Part shown: positions 20,557-61,746 of the stretch, in pieces
How the letters are laid out: each line of letters starts with the position of its first letter
How positions within the stretch are numbered: position 1 is the first letter of the stretch
DNA from: a virus
Reading direction: 5' to 3' (one strand)
IMG/VR virus record: IMGVR_UViG_3300010970_000136
Coordinates: 5,836 to 69,835 of that record
Length of the DNA: 64,000 nucleotides
Notes under the pieces: generated by a model
The model's input: the letters and a program-made list of their open reading frames with translations, nothing else
Databases searched by the model: none
Told to the model about the DNA's origin: nothing
Made by a program: the position numbers and the translations under genes

Positions 20557-21576
20557 ATGAACAACGAAGCACAAAGAACAATTGGAGAGAATTTTGTATT
20601 TATGAACAAAACCTTGTCTATCCTTAACATAGGACATACAACAGGTAAAAACATCGTTTTATATGGTCCAGGGGGTCATGGTAAATCAGAAATTACATTA
20701 GAATACTTCGCAGAGAAAGGAATCAGTCCTTATGTAATCACAATGGGTACAGGTATGACAACAGACAGATTGTTTGGTGGTCTTAACATACCAACATTTG
20801 AAGCATCAGGTAAGATTGAGTATCTTGTAGAGAATTCATTCATGAATCATGAGTATGTAATCTTCGAAGAGATGTTTGATGCACCAGATTTTATCTTAGA
20901 GCAATTGAAAGATATCTTATCATCAGGTGTGTTCAGAAACGGTACACAAATCTATCCTATCAAAACTAAGTTTATTGTATGTTGTACTAACAGAACTCGT
21001 GAAGAATTCTCTAAGAACATGTCATTGAAAGCATTAATGGAGCGTTTTCCATTAGAATTGAATGTTGTATGGGACAATTATAACGAGATTGCTTACAACA
21101 AGCTGTTAGAAACTAAGTTTGGTGAAGGAAACATTGATCCAATCATTCCATTCTTGTTACAAGAGTATGCTAAGAATGGTATTATCATTTCACCTCGTGT
21201 TGCTGTAATAGCATATCAAGTGTTTGATCAACATGGTCCTGAATCATTGACATTCATTGCTGAGTTTGCTAAGAAACCAGAGCTTATTGCTGATGCTATC
21301 AAGAAATATGAATCTACATTGAAATTCAGAGAGATGTCAGGTGAGATTTCTGAACTTATTGACAGATTAGAATCTAACACTATGTCATCTAATGATGATA
21401 ATAAAGCTTTTGCATCAGATGTTGATACATTGAAACAGAAGTTAGATGCTATCAAGAGACTTACAGTGAATGATGATATTGCACACATGCTTGCATCATT
21501 GAGTAAAGCTGTTGGTGAGAAGATCAAAGCGTTTGAGAAAAAGCAATCAGTTGCTAAAATCATGGTAGAACTATAA
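20557..21576 (+). CDS. MoxR-family AAA+ ATPase
   Basis: Walker A GPGGHGKS, Walker B VIFEE, sensor CTN, Arg finger ALMERF, ISPR. Confidence 0.85.
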   Translation: MNNEAQRTIGENFVFMNKTLSILNIGHTTGKNIVLYGPGGHGKSEITLEYFAEKGISPYVITMGTGMTTDRLFGGLNIPTFEASGKIEYLVENSFMNHEYVIFEEMFDAPDFILEQLKDILSSGVFRNGTQIYPIKTKFIVCCTNRTREEFSKNMSLKALMERFPLELNVVWDNYNEIAYNKLLETKFGEGNIDPIIPFLLQEYAKNGIIISPRVAVIAYQVFDQHGPESLTFIAEFAKKPELIADAIKKYESTLKFREMSGEISELIDRLESNTMSSNDDNKAFASDVDTLKQKLDAIKRLTVNDDIAHMLASLSKAVGEKIKAFEKKQSVAKIMVEL

Positions 21577-21579
21577 TCT

Positions 21580-22968
21580 ATGGCTAGTATTTTTGACATT
21601 GATGAAACCTATGGAGAGACTTACTCTCCATATGGTTACACTACTTCATATGGACGTGGTAAAACACGTTACACACCAAGAAAAACATCTTGGAGTAGAA
21701 GTAGTTGGTCAAGTTATTCTTTCGCAACAGCATTTGAAGACAATGATAATGATTTGATGGTTAAAGACCCAGTGTCTTATATAACACCAACAAAGCAAGA
21801 AATCAAGAAGAAAACAAATCTGTGGAAAGAAGATGCTTTTACTACTATCAAAGAACTAGCACGTATATGCTATTTCAAGATGATGGATGAAAAAGAATAT
21901 CTACGTGAAGACTTATCTGATTGGGATAAACTAGACGATGAAACAAGAGGTCAGTATGCCCAAAAGAAAGAACTATACGATAGTGTATTTGATATCTATG
22001 TACCAGGATTTACACCATTAGAACAAGCTATTGCTATATTTCGTCAGTTAGAGAAGAAAACTGTTGATGAATATGGTAATCGTCAAGAGGAAGAAGGTGA
22101 AATGGACATGACTAAATCATTAGGATTTGATAGAGAGCTTTACAATGATCCAACGATCAATGAACAACTTAACTACAATGAACTGAGTAAAGATAAGAAA
22201 ATGGATATCATGAATAAGATATCAATCATTGGAGATCTTGGTACACAGTTTAAAGTGGAGAAAGAAGTTGATGAAAAGATTGTACCAAACTCTGATCAGT
22301 ATTCTAAGATGATTATGCGTGACTATTCACAGTTTCACATGATTGATCTATATCAAAAGATGTTTCCTAACTTTAGAACTAAGTTCTTAACTAAAGACTT
22401 AACAGTTAATGTTCCTGTTGATAGAAAAGAACAAAAGCAAAAGATCATCATTATGTTAGACTTCTCAGGAAGTATGGATGAAGATGAGAAACAAATTTGG
22501 GTAAATGCTATTCTTATTGATAGATTTAGATATGTTATGAAAGGAGAAGCTGAAGTGTTCTTCAGTTACTTTATCCATGACAAGAAAGATCTTAAGTTTC
22601 AACACATCAAAGATAGAGAAGATGTAATCAAGTTTTGGCAAACATTCTCTAATGATCCAAATGGTGGTACAACAGCAATTGGTGAGTTAGTAGAATATGT
22701 AGCTAAGCAAGTAACTGAAGAAAAGAAGTTACATAACTTAGACATAGATCTATCTGAAGAAAGACCAGAAATCTTAATTATCAATGATGGTCAAGATAGA
22801 GTGCATAGTGACAAGTTTCCTTATAAAGTGAATGCAATATCATTAATTGAATTCAGTGATCAACTTAAAGACCTATGTGTAGCCACAAATGGTAAGCAAG
22901 TGAAAGTTGAATATGGTGATGTTGTAACAGCTTATTCTAAACAAGGAGAACAAATCATCTCTAAATAA
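21580..22968 (+). CDS. von Willebrand factor A domain protein (MoxR partner)
   Basis: MIDAS DFSGSM, GGTT, INDG; adjacent to AAA ATPase. Confidence 0.85.
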   Translation: MASIFDIDETYGETYSPYGYTTSYGRGKTRYTPRKTSWSRSSWSSYSFATAFEDNDNDLMVKDPVSYITPTKQEIKKKTNLWKEDAFTTIKELARICYFKMMDEKEYLREDLSDWDKLDDETRGQYAQKKELYDSVFDIYVPGFTPLEQAIAIFRQLEKKTVDEYGNRQEEEGEMDMTKSLGFDRELYNDPTINEQLNYNELSKDKKMDIMNKISIIGDLGTQFKVEKEVDEKIVPNSDQYSKMIMRDYSQFHMIDLYQKMFPNFRTKFLTKDLTVNVPVDRKEQKQKIIIMLDFSGSMDEDEKQIWVNAILIDRFRYVMKGEAEVFFSYFIHDKKDLKFQHIKDREDVIKFWQTFSNDPNGGTTAIGELVEYVAKQVTEEKKLHNLDIDLSEERPEILIINDGQDRVHSDKFPYKVNAISLIEFSDQLKDLCVATNGKQVKVEYGDVVTAYSKQGEQIISK

Positions 22969-24246: not shown

Positions 24247-24255
24247 CAAAAAATA

Positions 24256-24488
24256 GCTAAGCTGTGTAAAGCGTCAGAACTGATAATCTGTTAGAAGCTA
24301 TAGCCTAAACATTGATGCTTTGTAAATTATGAATAAGACGCTACCTTGAAATACAGGATTAGAAATGGATGTGTAGGGGTAATTCAGCGTGCGCTTTAAG
24401 TGACATATGGTCTTAATATTCCTCTAATAGTTTACATAAAGATACTATCAGTAATGGTAGATGTGTTGGAGCCTTGAGAAAGCTTAGT
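24256..24488 (+). ncRNA. Unassigned structured RNA A
   Basis: Terminal stem GCTAAGCT/AGCTTAGT followed by T7; GNRA-capped CTATCA-GTAA-TGGTAG; T-loop-like TGAAA/TGAGA loops; no ORF. Confidence 0.55.
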
Positions 24489-24519
24489 ATTTTTTTACGA
24501 CTTATATAATACCGCCACA

Positions 24520-24666
24520 ACACAAATGAGTTCTCAGCAAGTAGTTAGTGAATCCATGCTTATTGATGGTGCTAAGTGGTAATTCTTATTCCTACTAATT
24601 ACGTGACCCTACTCTTATTATGACCTCTATTGCTATAAGTTAAGATGTAATAAGAAAGGGTGCTAG
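24520..24666 (+). ncRNA. Unassigned structured RNA B
   Basis: GTAGTTAGT/ACTAATTAC and ACCCT..TCTTATTA/TAATAAGA..AGGGT stems in tandem. Confidence 0.45.
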
Positions 24667-24708
24667 ATTTAAAAAAGTAATTGATAAGTGTCCTCACATG
24701 AGGAAACT

Positions 24709-25031
24709 GGGGGTGACTGGTTTTGACAGGTTACCAGTAGTTAATACAATCAGCCAGAGAGATAACTGTAAACTAAGGTGAATTTAATTAATTGGCAATC
24801 AAACAACTCGTGTAGTGGCTCTAGGAGCAAACGCACAAATCGAAGCTAACATGAACAAAGTATTCTCTCTATTGGGAGAAGAAGTTGCTGTAGCAGCCTA
24901 AATTGAATAAGGATTTCTCTGTTAGATTAAACAGAGTGGTGGATCGTTAAGCCTAGCTTGACCCTAAATAAGCTGTATAAATTGTATTAATAAAAGTAGT
25001 TTGGACGTGGGTTCGACTCCCACCACCTCCA
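24709..25031 (+). ncRNA. ssrA: tmRNA
   Basis: 5' GGGGGTGACTGGTTTTGAC, 3' GACGTGGGTTCGACTCCCACCACCTCCA; G3:U70 Ala identity; internal tag ORF 24794-24901 ending VAVAA*. Confidence 0.93.
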
Positions 25032-25040
25032 CTGAATTCT

Positions 25041-25178
25041 GAATTTGCACATCATGTTCCTTACAAACCTTGTAATGTTGGCCGTTGTTATGCTTATACC
25101 ACGTGCAAATTCGTGTTATTTTAGAACTTAAATTGAGTGGTGAATAACAACATAGGTGACTGATAGGAAAGACTATCA
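25041..25178 (+). ncRNA. Unassigned structured RNA C (spacer between tmRNA and tRNA-like RNA)
   Basis: GAATTTGCAC/GTGCAAATTC stem, crossing GTTGTTAT/ATAACAAC pairing, TGATAG-GAAAGA-CTATCA hairpin. Confidence 0.4.
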
Positions 25179-25181
25179 AAT

Positions 25182-25292
25182 GATTGAGTGGCGGAATTGG
25201 TAGACGCTAAGAATAATAGTTCGTAACTCACATACAGCTCTGTAGAGAGTATTCTAGGTAACACCATACAGGTTCGAATCCTGTCTCAATCA
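25182..25292 (+). tRNA. tRNA-like RNA (Leu-type D arm) with expanded, non-canonical anticodon arm
   Basis: Acceptor GATTGAG/CTCAATC+A, D arm GCGGAATTGGTAGACGC, T arm ACAGG-TTCGAAT-CCTGT; AGAATA/TATTCT encloses about 34 nt. Confidence 0.75.
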
Positions 25293-25294
25293 CA

Positions 25295-25521
25295 GCAGTT
25301 GCTTGATGTCAAATATGTACAGCAACAGACATTGGAGAAATTTGGCTTCTCATGAATGTTAAGTCCTTTCCACACAGAGAAGGAGTTGAGTACTTACAGA
25401 AGGATGTATAGAGTTCCAATCTCAACATTGTGGTATTACATCCACATTAAACTTGTAATCTATGGTCTCTTTGGAAAGGGAACGCTTGTGAGTTGCAGTG
25501 AATATTAAACTCTCAAACTGT
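25295..25521 (+). ncRNA. Unassigned structured RNA D
   Basis: CCTTTCCA/TGGAAAGG, GTTGAG/CTCAAC, GTTGCT/AGCAAC stems; no ORF; ends before a terminator. Confidence 0.55.
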
Positions 25522-26146: not shown

Positions 26147-26884
26147 ATGGGAAAGACATTTGTTATGGGAGATATCCATGGAAATTATAGAGCTATGTTA
26201 CAATGCTTAGAAAGAAGTGGATTTGATAAACAAGAAGACACTCTTATACAACTAGGTGATGTAGCAGATGGTTGGAGTGAGACAGCAGAATGTGTCGATC
26301 TCTTATTGTCAATTAAGAATCTGATATCTCTTAGAGGTAATCATGATGTTTGGGTGAATGATTGGTTCCAAATGGGACAAACACCTATTCTATGGACAGA
26401 ACAAGGTGGTAAAGCCACTATGGCTTCTTATGTAAGAACAGGTAAGCTTGTAGATAGAGAACACAAAGACTTCTGGAATGATCAACAAGATTGGTATATA
26501 GATGATAAGAACAGATTGTTTATACATGCTGGTTGGGATTATCATCATCCAGGTACATGGGAACAACAAGCTAGTCTTAAAGTGAATGCAGGAAGCACAG
26601 CTAGAGAATGCCATTGGGATAGAAGTGTTATTATGGGTGCTAGATCAGCGTTTGGTAATAAGAACCTAAAGAATGGTAAGTTCAAAACTCTTGAGCAGTT
26701 TCATGAAATCTATATTGGTCATACAGCAGACAACACAGGACCTCATCAATATGGTAACTTATGGAACCTAGATAGTGGAGCTGGTTGGACTGGTAAGTTA
26801 ACTATTATGGACATAGACACTAAAGAGTATTGGCAAAGTGATTTCGCAACATTATTATACCCAGACGAAAATGGAAGAAGATAA
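26147..26884 (+). CDS. Calcineurin-like metallophosphoesterase (Ser/Thr phosphatase family)
   Basis: GDIHG, LGDVAD, GNHD, HAG, GHT motifs. Confidence 0.9.
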   Translation: MGKTFVMGDIHGNYRAMLQCLERSGFDKQEDTLIQLGDVADGWSETAECVDLLLSIKNLISLRGNHDVWVNDWFQMGQTPILWTEQGGKATMASYVRTGKLVDREHKDFWNDQQDWYIDDKNRLFIHAGWDYHHPGTWEQQASLKVNAGSTARECHWDRSVIMGARSAFGNKNLKNGKFKTLEQFHEIYIGHTADNTGPHQYGNLWNLDSGAGWTGKLTIMDIDTKEYWQSDFATLLYPDENGRR

Positions 26885-29341
26885 TGCTACAGGTTATTAT
26901 GACTGGATGAAAAGTTTAGAGGATGTTAGAAAACAATATATAAATCAACATGATAAATACACTTTAAAAAGTGTATTGAATTGGAGACAAACTCCACATG
27001 TAACTAGAGGTAATGGAGAAATTGATATTAATCCTTATGAAGCTACAGAAGAAGAAAAACCTATAGAAGTTAATATGGATGACTACATTCATAAAGATGA
27101 AATGGTACAGATACTATTAGATTCCAGACATGCTTTGTTCACTGATAAAATTCCTTCAGTATTAGAAGTAATAGAATGGATAGAAGAACGTAAAAAACAA
27201 AAGTTATGAAAAACATACACGTATTACCAAAGGACATTTTTAATCAATTAGGTGTTGACCATTATGGTAAAACTCCAACTCAAATTAAAATTGCCGAATT
27301 TTTAATCAATAAAAACATCTACATCACTTCTGATGAAGAACCAAAATACAAGGACTTCTATATAACGAATGGTAATAAAATTTATTTTTGTAATACGCTT
27401 AATCCAACAAGAAATAATCATTACAAAAAAATCATCCTAACAACAGACCAAGACTTAATTAAAGATGGTGTACAAGCTATTGATGATGAGTTTATTGAAT
27501 GGTTTGTGAAGAATCCAAGTTGTGAGAGGGTTGAGGTTGAAAGAGATAGTAGAGAAGTTGGCGGTCATAATGGTGGTTCAGTAATTGAATATGGATTATA
27601 TGAAATAATCATTCCAAAAGAAGAAGCTAAACAAGAAACCCTTAAAGAAGTTGAATTAGCTATTTTATTCCATAATACTTATGAAAAATTAGCACCAAGT
27701 TTTGGTTATGAAACAAGAGAAGATACAAAATCATTTGACATTACTACTCCAAATGGAAAGTTAATGATTGCTGTTTGTAAAGAAATAATTAAATGGCAAC
27801 AAGAAACACCTATTGACAAAGGAGAAGGAGAAGCCTATCGTCAAGAATTATTCAATTACCTTCATGATAATTTTGTAGTAATTGCATCAGAATCAGAAAT
27901 GCAAGAAATTGAAAGAATAGTTTTAAGTACGCAACAAGAAAGAATGTATAGTGAGATGGATATTGTTTTAATCTTAAGTAAATTTAGAGATATGAAAATG
28001 ATAGCTTTTAGTGAATGGTTTGAAAAATTTAGAAAGAAATAAGATATGACACCTCAAAAATTTTTAGACGAAATCTATGCAAAATCAGAGATTGATTATG
28101 GATTAGCACTACCTCCTACAACATCAAGAGACGCTTTAGAAGTATTAACAAATCATTTTCTTGGAGAAAATTGGTACACAACAATGTCAATGAGCGATGA
28201 GCAAGTTATTACAGAAATAGTAGTAAGTATACTTGAAAAAACTCAACCAAAGAATTTTCTTCAAAGACTATTTAATATTTAAAAAGAAATAAAATATGGT
28301 AGAATTACTTTGTAGCATTATCATTGCACTACCTATATGGTTAGTTGCATTAGAGTTAAGACAGATGAACAAATTTAAAAACAAATAATATGTTAGTAGG
28401 AATATTTGATTTAGTTTGGTTACTCATAGAATTAATCGCAAAATTACTAATAAAACTATTTAAACTATTTAAAAAGAAATAAGAATTATGTAGTATGAAA
28501 GCATACGATAGACAAAGAGAACTAGAAGTAAGAGCTATACAAATCATATACACCAAACTTTATAAGAATGCATATCCATCCACTGATTATGAATCATTGG
28601 TTAGAAATGCTACAATCAATAAAGAAGGGAAGAAAGTTATCAAGAGTGGAGCTTATACAATAACAGAGGACAAATTTAACAAGATTGTTGACAGAGAACT
28701 AGAATGGGGAAACTTCAGCAATCTATCAAAGCAAATTATTAAACAGACAATACTCGAAGGGTGTTGTCCTAAAATCTTAGAAACATGCAAATAGTAAACG
28801 GAAAGTGGGTGGACAACTTTGAAAACCCAGTAGATGATTTCAACTTCAATCAATTAAAAGAAGTTTCAGAGAATGTAACAGCGTTATATGGTGAGAAGAT
28901 TACATACGAGAGAATAAAGCTTGTAGGGTCATTAAAATCGTTAAACGGTAAGCAAGAAAGCATCATTGCTAATTTGTTACAAGATCATGAATTAATTTCT
29001 AAACTATCAGGATTATGAGTAGCTACTATATACTAAAGGATAAAACACCTGTCCAAGTGGCAGATGTTCGAGAATGGGCTACTAACTATGAAGGAAACCG
29101 TAATGTAGCAAGAGATACATTTGGTAAAGTGATAGTCTCCACTGTATTCTTAGGACTAGATCATAACTATGAAGGTAAAGGTGAACCAATATTGTTTGAA
29201 ACAATGATATTTGGTGGTAAACATGATCAATATCAAACTAGATGTTCAACTTGGGGTGAAGCTGTTATTCAACATGAAGAAGCTTGTAAACTTGTAAGAA
29301 ATAAATTTATATCATGGATAAGAAATTTTCTGAATATATAG
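26871..29341 (+). other. Run of small hypothetical genes
   Basis: ORFs 26838/26871, 27206, 28046, 28495, 28785, 29015 with coupled starts and stops. Confidence 0.6.
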
Positions 29342-47776: not shown

Positions 47777-48312
47777 AGTTGTGTCACAAATATTTACTTG
47801 ATTATTTAACATAAATTTAACATGCTTTTGTCGCAATTTGTCACAAAAGTATGTTATTTTTATTGTTTAAAATATATCATTATGAAAAAAGTATGTAGTA
47901 AATGTAAAGAAGAAAAACAGTTGACTGATTTTCATAAAAATAAAGTTGGTAAACATGGAGTTCATCATTACTGTAAGTCTTGTAACAGTGTTCAGAAAAA
48001 AAGTTCCTATGATTATGTCAAAAGTAGAAATAGAGGAATACTGAATAAATATAATTTAACTTTAGAAGAAGTAGAAAACTTATATATTACTCAAGACAAG
48101 AAATGTAAGATATGTAATATTGAATATTTATCAGTATCAAAACATGGTGGATTATATATTGACCACTGTCATACTACTGGAAAAGTTAGAGGTTTGTTGT
48201 GTAGCAAGTGTAACATGTTACTAGGTGCTTCTAATGATAATATTTCAATATTAAAATCAGCAATCAATTACATAGTCGATTCACAAATTTAGATTAAATT
48301 TGTGACATAACT
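47777..48312. repeat. 15-bp inverted repeat flanking the endonuclease gene
   Basis: AGTTGTGTCACAAAT (47777-47791) / ATTTGTGACATAACT (48298-48312), one G-U pair. Confidence 0.7.
47882..48292 (+). mobile_element. Endonuclease VII-family homing endonuclease
   Basis: CSKC...CKSC N-terminus; KYNLT..QDKKCKIC...IDHCHTTGKVRGLLCSKCNMLLG. Confidence 0.85.
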
Positions 48313-48326
48313 TAATTTATAAGAAT

Positions 48327-48716
48327 ATGGCAAAGAGAGTATTAGTCCCAAAGACAAGATGTAATGGAACAATGAGTGAGGCAGCCTTTTGGAGCTTCAT
48401 AAGAAGTGCTTTGAGACAAAAGAGCAGATGGTGGAAGCCTATTTCAGTATGTAAAGAGAATGCAAAACGTCCTTATAAAGGAGCAAACAAACGTCAGAAA
48501 TATGAATATCAATGTAAGAAGTGTAAGAAGTGGTATCCAGATAAACAAATCAATATAGATCACATACATCCTGCAGGTAGCTTAAATACAGCACAAGACT
48601 TACCAGGATTTGTAGAAAGACTATTTTGTGAAGTGGACAACCTTCAAGTGTTATGCACTACTTGCCACGATAAGAAAACACTGGCTGAAAAACAATCAAA
48701 AAAGAAAACAATATGA
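48327..48716 (+). CDS. HNH endonuclease
   Basis: CKKC..IDHIHPAG...NLQVLCTTCHDKKT. Confidence 0.85.
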   Translation: MAKRVLVPKTRCNGTMSEAAFWSFIRSALRQKSRWWKPISVCKENAKRPYKGANKRQKYEYQCKKCKKWYPDKQINIDHIHPAGSLNTAQDLPGFVERLFCEVDNLQVLCTTCHDKKTLAEKQSKKKTI

Positions 48717-55912: not shown

Positions 55913-56174
55913 TTTTGATTTCCCTCAGATATGTACCAAATGTCAGGGATATGTAACTATACCTTACACTTGGAGCAGTACAGCTGTGTATATGTTGTGC
56001 AGTTGTCCAAAAGTTTCTCTATCATGGGAATGTCACAGATGTAGAAAGATTAATGCTCCATGGAAAGGAAGTTGTGATTGCACACCTTCTCAATTGAACA
56101 GTCCTGTTACATCTGGTACAGTACCGTATGCAGATGGTACAACTAATCTTACCATTACCAAAAATGAAATGTAA
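55905..56174 (+). CDS. Zn-ribbon protein
   Basis: CTKC, WECHRCRKINAPW..CDC. Confidence 0.55.
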   Translation: MSSFDFPQICTKCQGYVTIPYTWSSTAVYMLCSCPKVSLSWECHRCRKINAPWKGSCDCTPSQLNSPVTSGTVPYADGTTNLTITKNEM

Positions 56175-56559
56175 AACCTGTGGGAAGAACTCTGACAGTG
56201 AGTATTGTTTCCAACATAAACCTAGAAAACAACTACAACAACGTGGGATAAAACCATCATTAACTACCAAAAAGAAGGTTAATGATGGAAAATCCCATCA
56301 AATGAGAGAGATGTTTCTTAGCGTATGGAAAAAAAGAAAACACCATTCAGAAGTGAGTGGTGCCTATCTTGGTAGTGAGCCTATGTCTACATACTTCCAT
56401 CATATACTAGCTAAAGAAAAATATCCTGAAGCTTGTCTGGATGAGGAAAATATCATACTTTTGACCCTAGAGGAGCATTCTAACGTAGAAAATGATATGT
56501 ATAGGTATGAGGAGGTTAACAGAAGACGTGAACAATTAAAAGTTAAATACAAATTATGA
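56164..56559 (+). CDS. HNH-like nuclease
   Basis: FHHILAKEKYP...NIILLTLEEH; likely start ATG 56164. Confidence 0.6.
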   Translation: MKCKTCGKNSDSEYCFQHKPRKQLQQRGIKPSLTTKKKVNDGKSHQMREMFLSVWKKRKHHSEVSGAYLGSEPMSTYFHHILAKEKYPEACLDEENIILLTLEEHSNVENDMYRYEEVNRRREQLKVKYKL

Positions 56560-61215: not shown

Positions 61216-61746
61216 TTAGCTATAGCTTTGAATGTTTTTATATTTATTAAGATATTCTAGTAGTCTTTCTGCTGTATTTACATCATCGTCAATTTGTCCA
61301 AGAAATCTATTACAGTTTCCACATAATAGTCCTCTTACTTTTCCAGTTGTATGACAATGATCAACAGCTAATGATCTATCTAGTTTATCTTCATGTGTAT
61401 GACAAATGTAACATTTGTGATTTTGCTCAGATAACATTTGATTGTATTCATCAGAAGTAATTCCATACTTCTTATTAAGAAGATATTCTCTTTGTTTAAA
61501 TAAATCATATCTACTTCTAGTTCTTAGAGCATAGCAACTTTTACAATACCAACCATTCTTAGGTCTTTCTGAAATATTTTTCCAAGTATCGCAGCTTGTA
61601 CATAAGAAATTATTATCTTTAATTAAATTATAAGTATCTGCTTCAATTTGAAGTAACTCTTCAACAGATACACCTTTTCTTTTAGCTCTTCTAGCTATTT
61701 CATAAGGATGTTGACTTCTTATAGAGCCTTTTTTAATCATGCTCAT
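61216..61746 (-). mobile_element. Endonuclease VII-family homing endonuclease
   Basis: KYGIT..QNHKCYIC...AVDHCHTTGKVRGLLCGNCN. Confidence 0.85.

Follow-up and report, generated by a model that had tools for sequence, protein, structure and literature searches.

Transfer-messenger RNAs (tmRNAs) encode tags that are generally regarded as short degrons, with only the last few residues being of importance. Here we describe a tmRNA gene with a tag frame of 35 codons in the DNA of an uncultured freshwater phage. The gene lies at positions 24709-25031 (+) of a stretch of 64,000 nucleotides (nt), hereafter called the window, which comprises bases 5836-69835 of the 69,835-nt IMG/VR virus record IMGVR_UViG_3300010970_000136. 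All positions given below are those of the window. An initial annotation of this stretch had read the locus as a short phage tmRNA with an unusually long tag, and a comparative analysis was performed to follow up that reading.

Phage-borne tmRNAs have been described before. A 2014 survey reported them in mycobacteriophages and Bacillus phage G (PMC4131195), and a 2022 count placed tmRNAs in 402 of 18,146 phage genomes (PMC9004378). The tmRNAs of cluster C mycobacteriophages and phage G, and the two-piece tmRNAs of Melnitz-like phages and pelagiphages, are carried by phages and rely on host SmpB, as the gene described here presumably does, but they belong to other tmRNA lineages and other hosts; the available portions of both reports describe no conserved long tag for them (PMC4131195, PMC9004378). 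Phage Calle is credited with "one tmRNA gene," the count alone being given (PMC8776804), and a tmRNA has been reported for the Panino phage (PMC11590407). According to a 2025 tmRNA database paper the commonest tag has 10 amino acids (aa), and the accessible text of that paper discusses tags of 2 aa, not long ones; one of its supplement files held no match for Cellulophaga or Flavobacterium phages, although the database may still list them (PMC11915505). Long natural tags are known from Mollicutes, where they far exceed that of E. coli and where the extra length has been linked to recognition by Lon (PMC9382460). Those tags are bacterial, end in NYAFA, and bear no likeness to the core of the phage tags described here, which keep a ClpX-type end, [VLIM]AA. 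The E. coli ssrA tag is itself in two parts, with LAA read by ClpX and the upstream residues bound by SspB, which speeds delivery (PMC9382460, PMC3983244). We found no description of the phage tag family reported here in the portions of the literature available to us, which is not proof of absence.

The window tmRNA belongs to a group that we define here as the Flavobacteriia-phage long-tag clade by three marks, all of which it carries: the signature CAGAGAGATAACTG-N(2-14)-CTAAGGTGAA, a resume codon for G or D, and the tag motif Q-x-x-A-N-M-x-x-V. The cultured Flavobacteriia phages phi38:1, phi40:1, Calle, phi14:2, and the FpV4-like phages share the signature motif and a homologous tag, but their pseudoknot domains are longer, with RNAs of 359-469 nt. 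Chromosomal SsrA of Flavobacteriales likewise has an acceptor stem with a G3:U pair, a T arm, helix 2, a GGC resume codon in comparable A/T-rich surroundings some 11 nt downstream of the pseudoknot-1 region, and a tag that ends in a hydrophobic residue followed by Ala-Ala. In contrast, its tag has 9 aa (GENNYALAA or GE[ST]NYALAA) rather than 35, its length is 391-397 nt rather than 323 nt, the part that follows its stop codon measures 206-208 nt rather than 68 nt, it has no nucleotide similarity to the window tmRNA beyond the two ends, and it differs in the pseudoknot-1 sequence, which is nearly invariant in the phage clade. The window gene is a phage tmRNA of a known kind, in a form that combines a minimal pseudoknot domain, a 35-residue tag, a predicted phage-specific helix conserved as peptide, and an apparent dependence on host SmpB.

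Identification of the tmRNA gene and its source

ARAGORN called a single tmRNA in the window, at 24709-25032 (+), and Rfam model RF00023 (gathering score of 47) covered 24709-25034 from end to end of the model (positions 1-374) with 87.2 bits (E = 1.9e-32). The sequence itself places the end of the gene at the discriminator A, which would give a mature one-piece RNA of 323 nt (24709-25031), just as initially annotated. Of the 3' CCA the gene templates no more than the first C, because the bases that follow the discriminator A (25031) are C-T-G. In the tRNA-like domain the acceptor stem has 7 bp and contains G3:U70, a mark of alanine identity; the T arm carries a loop of the TTCGA type, and the discriminator A is present. 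The internal frame begins with GGC 11 nt past the signature motif, runs for 35 codons to a TAA, and ends in VAA. We put the probability that this is a functional phage tmRNA with a 35-residue tag at roughly 0.8, a figure that does not extend to the role of the helix in the tag.

The proteins encoded in the window include a terminase, a portal, a major head protein, a DNA polymerase, helicases, RIIA/RIIB, and a UvsX-like recombinase. The source is therefore a phage, as its place in IMG/VR also indicates, and the tmRNA is phage-borne as had been proposed.

Relatives and distribution

BLASTN against cultured phages showed that the first 194 nt of the gene, which contain the whole tag frame, are 76% identical to sequences in 29 records of Flavobacterium psychrophilum phages (FpV4-like); shorter matches were obtained in 9 Cellulophaga phage records. 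RF00023 scored 58.2 bits on FpV4 (415 nt), 87.6 bits on phi40:1 (362 nt), and 46 bits, just below the cut-off of 47, on the crAss-like phage phi14:2 (472 nt). The isolate tags are homologous to that of the window, reading GNTNNSVVSLEDNAQVEANMNMAFSLIREDVAVAA in FpV4 and GNNTNAVNAQIEANMEAVNAILNLEVAVGV in phi40:1. Cultured members of the clade are the FpV4-like Flavobacterium phages and Cellulophaga phages phi38:1, phi40:1, and phi14:2; the clade spans at least 3 cultured lineages (FpV4-like, Callevirus, and crAss-like phage) in addition to many uncultured phages. The phage of the window is only a distant relative of these isolates; its major head protein is 20.7% identical to that of FpV4. In the isolate records the tmRNA gene mostly goes without annotation. 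Among the annotated FpV4-like records listed, no feature lies beneath the tmRNA match (other records are without annotation), and the phi40:1 record has a "hypothetical protein" annotated over its tmRNA.

An exact scan of IMG/VR for CAGAGAGATAACTG-N(2-14)-CTAAGGTGAA identified at least 119 stretches. The same scan of 185,579 bacterial and archaeal species genomes, one genome per species, gave 1 match, on a 4.9-kb contig of a Flavobacteriales metagenome-assembled genome (MAG), and the tmRNA on that contig was the only true tmRNA found in the MAG. Nearly all members of the clade sit on contigs of viruses. When IMG/VR was scanned again with the peptide ANMxxV[FHY][SN][LI][LI] as seed, 242 stretches were returned; confirmation left 90 of them, and 80 were retained. 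These 80 included 10 tmRNAs with one-base variants of the signature and 2 stretches that were not tmRNA. The gene set used below consisted of 99 full-length genes (75 unique, 301-474 nt) from the first scan, the isolates, and the window, with 24 further loci left out as incomplete or as failing the rule used to find gene ends. A pooled set of 199 loci, 196 of them parsable, yielded 88 unique tags.

The family of the Flavobacteriales MAG was taken as the host family, and 12 of its genomes were searched. Ordinary ssrA genes of 391-397 nt, scoring 110-145 bits, were present in 10 of the 12. Their tags as given by ARAGORN were GENNYALAA in 4, GETNYALAA in 1, GESNYALAA in 2, and ESNYALAA in 3. The window tmRNA aligned to host ssrA by blastn only at its positions 1-21 and 291-323.

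Resume codon and length of the frame

The frame from GGC at 24794 to GCC at 24898 (35 codons, 24794-24898) translates to GNQTTRVVALGANAQIEANMNKVFSLLGEEVAVAA, the same 35 aa as in the initial annotation. It is preceded by an 11-nt spacer that ends in TAATT (24783-24793), and it is closed by TAA at 24899-24901, with a second in-frame TAA at 24908-24910. The position of the resume codon was assigned by comparison with relatives and host genes. In the clade, frames were fixed by the conserved Asn-Met and the terminal stop, so the in-frame position is given by construction; one of the 75 unique genes (L036) lacks the Asn-Met motif and was excluded, leaving 74. All 74 have a codon for G or D 10-12 nt past the signature (GGC in 38, GGA in 23, and GAC in 13), and the pentamer before this codon is TAAAT, TAAAC, or TAATT in every one of them. 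The number of codons from this position to the conserved Met takes eight values, from 7 to 19. Between the resume codon and the tag stop, frame 0 contains no stop in any of the 74 genes, whereas each of the other two frames contains at least one in all 74. The pooled set agrees, as 87 of its 88 unique tags begin with G or D.

Host-family ssrA genes have GGC before the tag Glu in 10 of 10, about 11 nt behind pseudoknot 1. The pentamer before it is TAAAT or TAATT in 5 of these genes and TAATA, TATCT, TAACT, or TAACA in the rest, so that the TAATT-GGC context, which had been likened to the Bacteroidota pattern, does fit that of the hosts. The Rfam alignment also puts the resume codon of the model on 24794. 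From these comparisons it is highly probable that translation would resume at GGC 24794 and that the tag would have 35 aa.

Conservation of the tag peptide

A long tag is the rule in the phage clade, as the 88 unique tags range from 24 to 45 aa with a mode of 35 (31 of 88), compared to 9 aa in the host. They end in VAA (47), LAA (12), IAA (11), MAA (5), MVA (4), AAA (3), or other residues (6). In the window tag, residues 1-9 are a variable linker, residues 10-28 a predicted helix, and residues 29-35 the putative degron EEVAVAA. This C-terminus is of the kind that ClpXP-type proteases are expected to read, and [VLIM]AA would be ClpX-type.

When 63 unique tags were aligned (duplicates collapsed, three isolate loci left out), residues Q15, A18, N19, M20, and V23 were invariant; Asn-Met was required by the selection rule, while Q, A, and V were not. 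The core Q-x-x-A-N-M-x-x-V is present in 87 of the 88 unique tags, the exception being FpV4, with Ala for Val. Over 13 core codons in 53 unique sequences, the proportion of synonymous differences (pS) was 0.67 and that of nonsynonymous differences (pN) was 0.26, a ratio of 0.38, compared to 0.82 and 1.33 in the two shifted frames. For codons 12-35 of the 35-aa class, pN/pS was 0.35. The invariant residues are written with different codons in these 53 sequences, Gln with 2 (CAA and CAG), Ala with 4, Val with 3, and Asn with AAC in 30 and AAT in 23, and within the core both TCN and AGC are used for Ser and both TTR and CTN for Leu. The low in-frame ratio and the codon switching at kept residues indicate selection on the amino acids.

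AlphaFold2, run on the 63-tag alignment, predicted a helix at residues 10-28 (block values of 87 and 84 for the predicted local distance difference test) with unstructured ends. N-terminal modules, core types (VFSLL or VVHNILNG), and C-terminal spacers are joined to one another in several ways, a pattern that suggests that tag modules are shuffled.

A profile of the tags was searched against 1.84 billion representative proteins and gave 69 matches at E ≤ 0.001, all of 28-94 aa and nearly all matched through to their C-terminus. No longer protein with the tag motif was found in that search. Sixteen of the 17 matches inspected end with the tag, and one (P0018) extends 15 residues beyond it. As several also start inside the 5' end of a tmRNA, these matches are mis-called open reading frames (ORFs). 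Gene callers thus place spurious "proteins" of 28-94 aa over clade tmRNAs, with 69 clusters in a public protein collection, and ARAGORN misses 19 of the 75 unique clade genes and gives inconsistent tag starts for the rest. None of three tags searched matched a PHROGs or Pfam family at E ≤ 1, and a look-up of the tag in a protein atlas gave best scores of 0.86-0.88, under the meaningful level.

The suggestion that the extra residues could redirect tagged proteins or alter their degradation is plausible on sequence grounds, because these residues are under selection at the peptide level. The clade keeps a tag 3-5 times longer than the usual one, and phages that have almost nothing else in common conserve its predicted internal helix as peptide. 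From such a large phage-only family with an invariant helical core, it is probable that the tag has some task beyond labeling incomplete proteins for degradation. The conservation of the long helix across the clade points to a second factor that reads the tag, and to a use of ribosome rescue particular to phages. The role of the tag is directly testable, since cultured pairs exist (Cellulophaga baltica with phi38:1 or phi40:1).

RNA structure and reduction of the pseudoknot domain

Structure was assessed on a short-form set of 26 sequences, comprising every one of ≤335 nt among the 75 unique genes. The RNAalifold consensus consisted of the acceptor stem, the T arm, helix 2, a CAG/CTG stem, helix 5, and one hairpin behind it, and changes on both sides keep the pairing in 30 of its 70 pairs. 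The 5' strand of the acceptor stem, GGGGGTG (24709-24715), forms 7 pairs, including G3:U, with 25024-25030; the 3' strand, CACCTCC, and the discriminator A together occupy 25024-25031. The third pair is G:U in 26 of 26 sequences, and pairs 4-6 change on both sides. The T arm, GTGGG-TTCGACT-CCCAC (25007-25023), has 5 pairs, 3 of them changed on both sides. Helix 2 joins 24727-24754 to 24972-25003 with many double-changed pairs.

Helix 5 is a hairpin of 10 pairs (24913-24940) with 99% of cells paired and changes on both sides, including a G:C to A:U exchange at column pair 233:244 in 9 of the 26 sequences. The place of pseudoknots 2 to 4 (pk2-pk4) is taken by a single hairpin (24947-24961) of 4 pairs, 3 of them double-changed, between an invariant GTGGTGG and ACC. 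For helix 5 and this hairpin together, 95.3% of cells were paired with 6 double-changed pairs, a result reached by 0 of 500 shuffles; slid controls gave 33-51%.

The stretch from the stop codon to the 3' strand of helix 2 measures 68 nt in the window tmRNA. Among 74 unique relatives, 25 have 64-71 nt here and the rest reach as much as 218 nt; the five host genes with a working marker have 206-208 nt (the marker was located in 6 of 10, and the 107 nt of L135 reflects an internal copy and was excluded). There is little room for pk2-pk4, as the initial annotation had noted, and none was found in the window tmRNA, where the 31 nt between helix 5 and helix 2 hold one hairpin of 4-6 bp. The graded lengths within the clade show a stepwise loss of pk2-pk4, with the window tmRNA as the minimal form. 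Running from 218 to 64 nt downstream of the tag, the series amounts to a natural experiment that asks how many pseudoknots a tmRNA requires. Lack of pk2-pk4 does not bar the RNA from being a tmRNA, because Nameki and co-workers reportedly found these pseudoknots to be replaceable in E. coli with tagging retained.

The pseudoknot-1 region (24755-24782) carries the clade signature in the exact form CAGAGAGATAACTG-N4-CTAAGGTGAA. This nearly invariant 28-nt motif contains a CAG/CTG stem of 3-4 bp (24755-24757 paired with 24766-24768), which is extended by G:C in phi40:1, by A:T in FpV4, and by C:G in L047 and L081. The stem that the Rfam alignment proposes for pseudoknot 1 has mismatches and no compensating change. 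A recurrent G-to-A variant, CTAAGATGAA for CTAAGGTGAA, is present in L161, L162, L164, L168, L179, L196, L197, and L222. Base pairing leaves the near-invariance of the motif across divergent tmRNAs unexplained.

Protein partners and expression

SmpB (PF01668) was not found in 9 of 9 phage records, namely the whole 69,835-nt record of the window, complete FpV4, phi40:1, and phi14:2, and five complete uncultured relatives of 113-124 kb (four with terminal repeats). The absence of smpB that had been noted for the window therefore holds for its whole record and for 8 further phages. The record of the window has no ClpP over the cut-off and no Lon, and the five complete relatives have no ClpP over the cut-off and one sub-threshold match of 18 bits. 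Clustering of ORFs in the 300-600-nt flanks of the 99 loci gave no open frame common to more than 16; these flanks are short and a partner may lie farther away, and the clusters came as pairs of equal size with strands unchecked and so may be conserved DNA. With no smpB and no shared neighbor, the tmRNA appears to travel alone, and its partners are most likely host proteins. We infer that host SmpB serves the phage tmRNA. ClpX with an N-terminal zinc domain is encoded in 3 of 3 host-family genomes, and SspB (PF04386) was not found in 12 of 12. A complex prediction for the tag and a host-family ClpX N-domain dimer with zinc, made without controls, scored 0.02 and carries no weight for or against binding.

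Public runs holding part of 24400-25400 numbered 24, of which 8 were RNA libraries, and four RNA runs from four studies were compared to the window. Contigs of 324 nt on 24717-25029 (run X24), 276 nt on 24750-25024 (run X23), and 205 nt on 24818-25022 (run X21, identical to the window) were obtained from three of them. Since contigs show neither ends nor strand, and RNA libraries can hold DNA, they hint only weakly at the natural existence of a discrete RNA roughly as long as the gene.

Proposed mechanism and alternative explanations

With its G3:U pair, the phage tmRNA would be charged with alanine by the host alanyl-tRNA synthetase, and host SmpB and EF-Tu would carry it to ribosomes stalled on broken or stop-less mRNAs. 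Translation would resume at GGC 24794, a position given by comparison, and continue through 35 codons to TAA 24899, where the ribosome would be released and the unfinished protein left with Ala and the 35-residue tag. The C-terminus of the tag would then hand tagged proteins to a host AAA+ protease, and a conserved host protein, be it an adaptor or the domain of a protease, could bind the helix as a second recognition element. By analogy, we think that the phage tag may work like the two-part E. coli tag, its helix taking the role of the SspB-binding half in hosts where SspB was not found; the upstream element is a short extended peptide in E. coli, however, and a predicted helix of about 19 residues in the phage tag. 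If there is such a second element, tagged proteins may be cleared faster or by another route than with the 9-residue host tag, a proposal that we hold tentatively, at somewhat less than even odds. At a time in infection when mRNAs of both host and phage are being cleaved, the phage would profit from recycled ribosomes and amino acids.

A bolder version, which we regard as unlikely, is that of a "super-degron," in which some conserved host protein, perhaps an AAA+ protease, would be bound directly by the invariant helix along with, in the subfamily of the window, an R-V-V stretch. The SspB segment that holds the ClpX N-domain, the LRVVK tether, resembles the R-V-V stretch ahead of the helix in the window tag. 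Were this version true, proteins from stalled ribosomes would be routed by the rule of the phage to faster destruction, another protease, or sequestration; tmRNA tags would be a phage means to reprogram host proteostasis, and the peptide module would have been shuffled and spread among unrelated phage families.

Several observations weigh against a functional tmRNA with a conserved 35-residue tag. The virus record of the window has an estimated completeness of 61%. A second stem of pseudoknot 1 was not found, either by eye or in the Rfam alignment, and no compensating change was found near the CTAAGATGAA variant. An amphipathic character of the helix was considered and rejected, as its hydrophobic moment of 0.21 was reached by 35% of shuffles. 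Run X5 yielded a 920-nt contig of a relative that covers 24596-25397, past both ends of the gene, which may be DNA carry-over or a longer precursor. Charging, tagging, and degradation are predictions from sequence comparison. The tag frame also contains three hairpins (24818-24828, 24845-24848 with 24891-24894, and 24864-24882) with 96.1% of cells paired, 7 double-changed pairs, and 0 of 500 shuffles reaching this value, although the structure was derived from the alignment on which it was scored and is biased in its favor. Synonymous Ser and Leu codon changes in these hairpins match Gly-to-Asn and Glu-to-Asp changes opposite. Part of the conservation of the frame may thus be RNA structure; if the hairpins are real, the frame is under a double constraint, and it may stay folded until opened by the ribosome.

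The N-terminal part of the tag is where an alternative start has to be considered. ARAGORN begins the tag at GCA 24827, in the same frame but 11 codons later, which would give 24 aa; the check proposed in the initial annotation, ARAGORN together with alignment to phage tmRNAs, was split, with the alignment favoring 24794 and ARAGORN going against it. Codons 1-11 of the 35-aa class have a pN/pS of 0.98, as expected of either a free linker or an untranslated stretch, and shuffling puts the chance that a single N-terminal part is open at about 0.55. On these grounds the RNA could be a real tmRNA that resumes further downstream, with a tag of ≤24 aa and the upstream frame an untranslated spacer. 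We consider this improbable. The ARAGORN start falls at 12 different offsets among the 56 homologues that it calls, so that it is not a homologous position, and it is the G/D codon in just 8 of them, whereas the G/D codon, its host-like context, and its distance of 10-12 nt are constant in 74 of 74 genes and the Rfam alignment agrees with 24794. Moreover, 43 unique N-terminal parts have 0 stops in 445 codons, compared to 50 and 15 in the other frames, although the product of about 0.009 over 12 sequence clusters makes openness by chance only moderately improbable. Even a start at 24827 would leave a 24-aa tag that holds the whole conserved helix. Doubt of another kind comes from the hairpins within the frame, which keep their pairing through changes on both sides and are also produced by a single-sequence fold; the frame might then be a structured open spacer, conserved as RNA, in which the last few residues alone matter. 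This is less probable still, as pN/pS is low only in frame, the Ser and Leu switches alter two or three bases with the residue kept, the VVHNILNG subfamilies retain Q-x-x-A-N-M-x-x-V with nucleotides different from those of VFSLL, and the fold z-score is just -1.28.

Two further explanations dispense with tagging as described here, and both seem very unlikely. An RNA without tagging activity could act as a decoy, titrating host SmpB and blocking trans-translation in the host, for which the lack of a phage smpB, the reduced pseudoknot domain, and the precedent of a tRNA-like fragment in mycobacteriophage DS6A could be cited (PMC4131195, PMC11915505), or else it could be a leftover attachment site. 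Against this, purifying selection acts on the full tag frame and its stop in 88 unique variants. The window tmRNA is not a captured attachment fragment, because it is full length and resembles host ssrA only at its ends (1-21 and 291-323), and no integrase was detected among the 62 window proteins scanned. The least probable explanation is an ordinary small gene starting at the invariant internal ATG (24851) that encodes a free 16-residue peptide. The invariance of Met-20 fits such a gene, but Q15, A18, and N19 lie upstream of the ATG and are kept as amino acids while their codons vary, so that a ribosome must read them; in addition, all that the profile search produced were frames of 28-94 aa ending with the tag, and it gave no gene family apart from these. 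We therefore retain a tmRNA with a 35-residue tag as the preferred reading.

Neighboring genes

The tmRNA gene sits in a run of small rightward genes. The 462 nt before it (24247-24708, +) contain no ORF of ≥50 aa. RNA-library contigs from three studies cover pieces of this stretch at 24430-24640, and its sequence is shared with the flanks of up to 16 relatives; no Rfam match was obtained for it at E up to 1, and its fold z-score of +0.72 gives no thermodynamic signal. A sigma-70-type scan, which does not cover Bacteroidota promoters, gave one promoter-like site, inside the tmRNA gene, and no terminator, fewer than in shuffles. Further upstream, at 20557-22965 (+) in a phage early region, are a MoxR-type AAA ATPase (PF20030, 47.2 bits) and, after it, a 462-aa protein with a weak vWA match under the cut-off (E = 0.0012), together a MoxR-vWA pair.

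A tRNA-like gene (25182-25293, +) follows 150 nt behind the tmRNA. It matches the Rfam tRNA model with 37.4 bits but has 43 nt in place of the 17-nt anticodon arm, and ARAGORN calls it only with the intron option, as tRNA-Leu (taa) with a 29-nt insert at position 38. The flanks of three relatives (L010, L068, and L119) have the same D arm with odd, differing middles. The gene may encode a tRNA with an interruption, or else an RNA of tRNA shape that lacks a normal anticodon arm. A joint at 25210-25259 in the X5 contig was considered as splicing and rejected, as its shorter side has 23 letters and is most likely the tRNA-Leu of another organism.

Downstream of the tmRNA and the tRNA-like gene, the next gene of appreciable size encodes a calcineurin-like metallophosphoesterase (26147-26881, +) that matches a NinI-like phosphatase PHROG at 2e-50 and, in part, an RNA-ligase PHROG; it may point to RNA repair. 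A 78-aa protein (28046-28279, +), 3 kb downstream of the tmRNA, matches Pfam Tad8, an inhibitor of Type II Thoeris, with 57.9 bits (cut-off of 27) and is a Tad8-like anti-defense gene. Two endonuclease VII-like and two HNH endonuclease genes lie among the replication genes, at 47822-48713, 56128-56556 (+), and 61216-61743 (-), and may be homing endonucleases.

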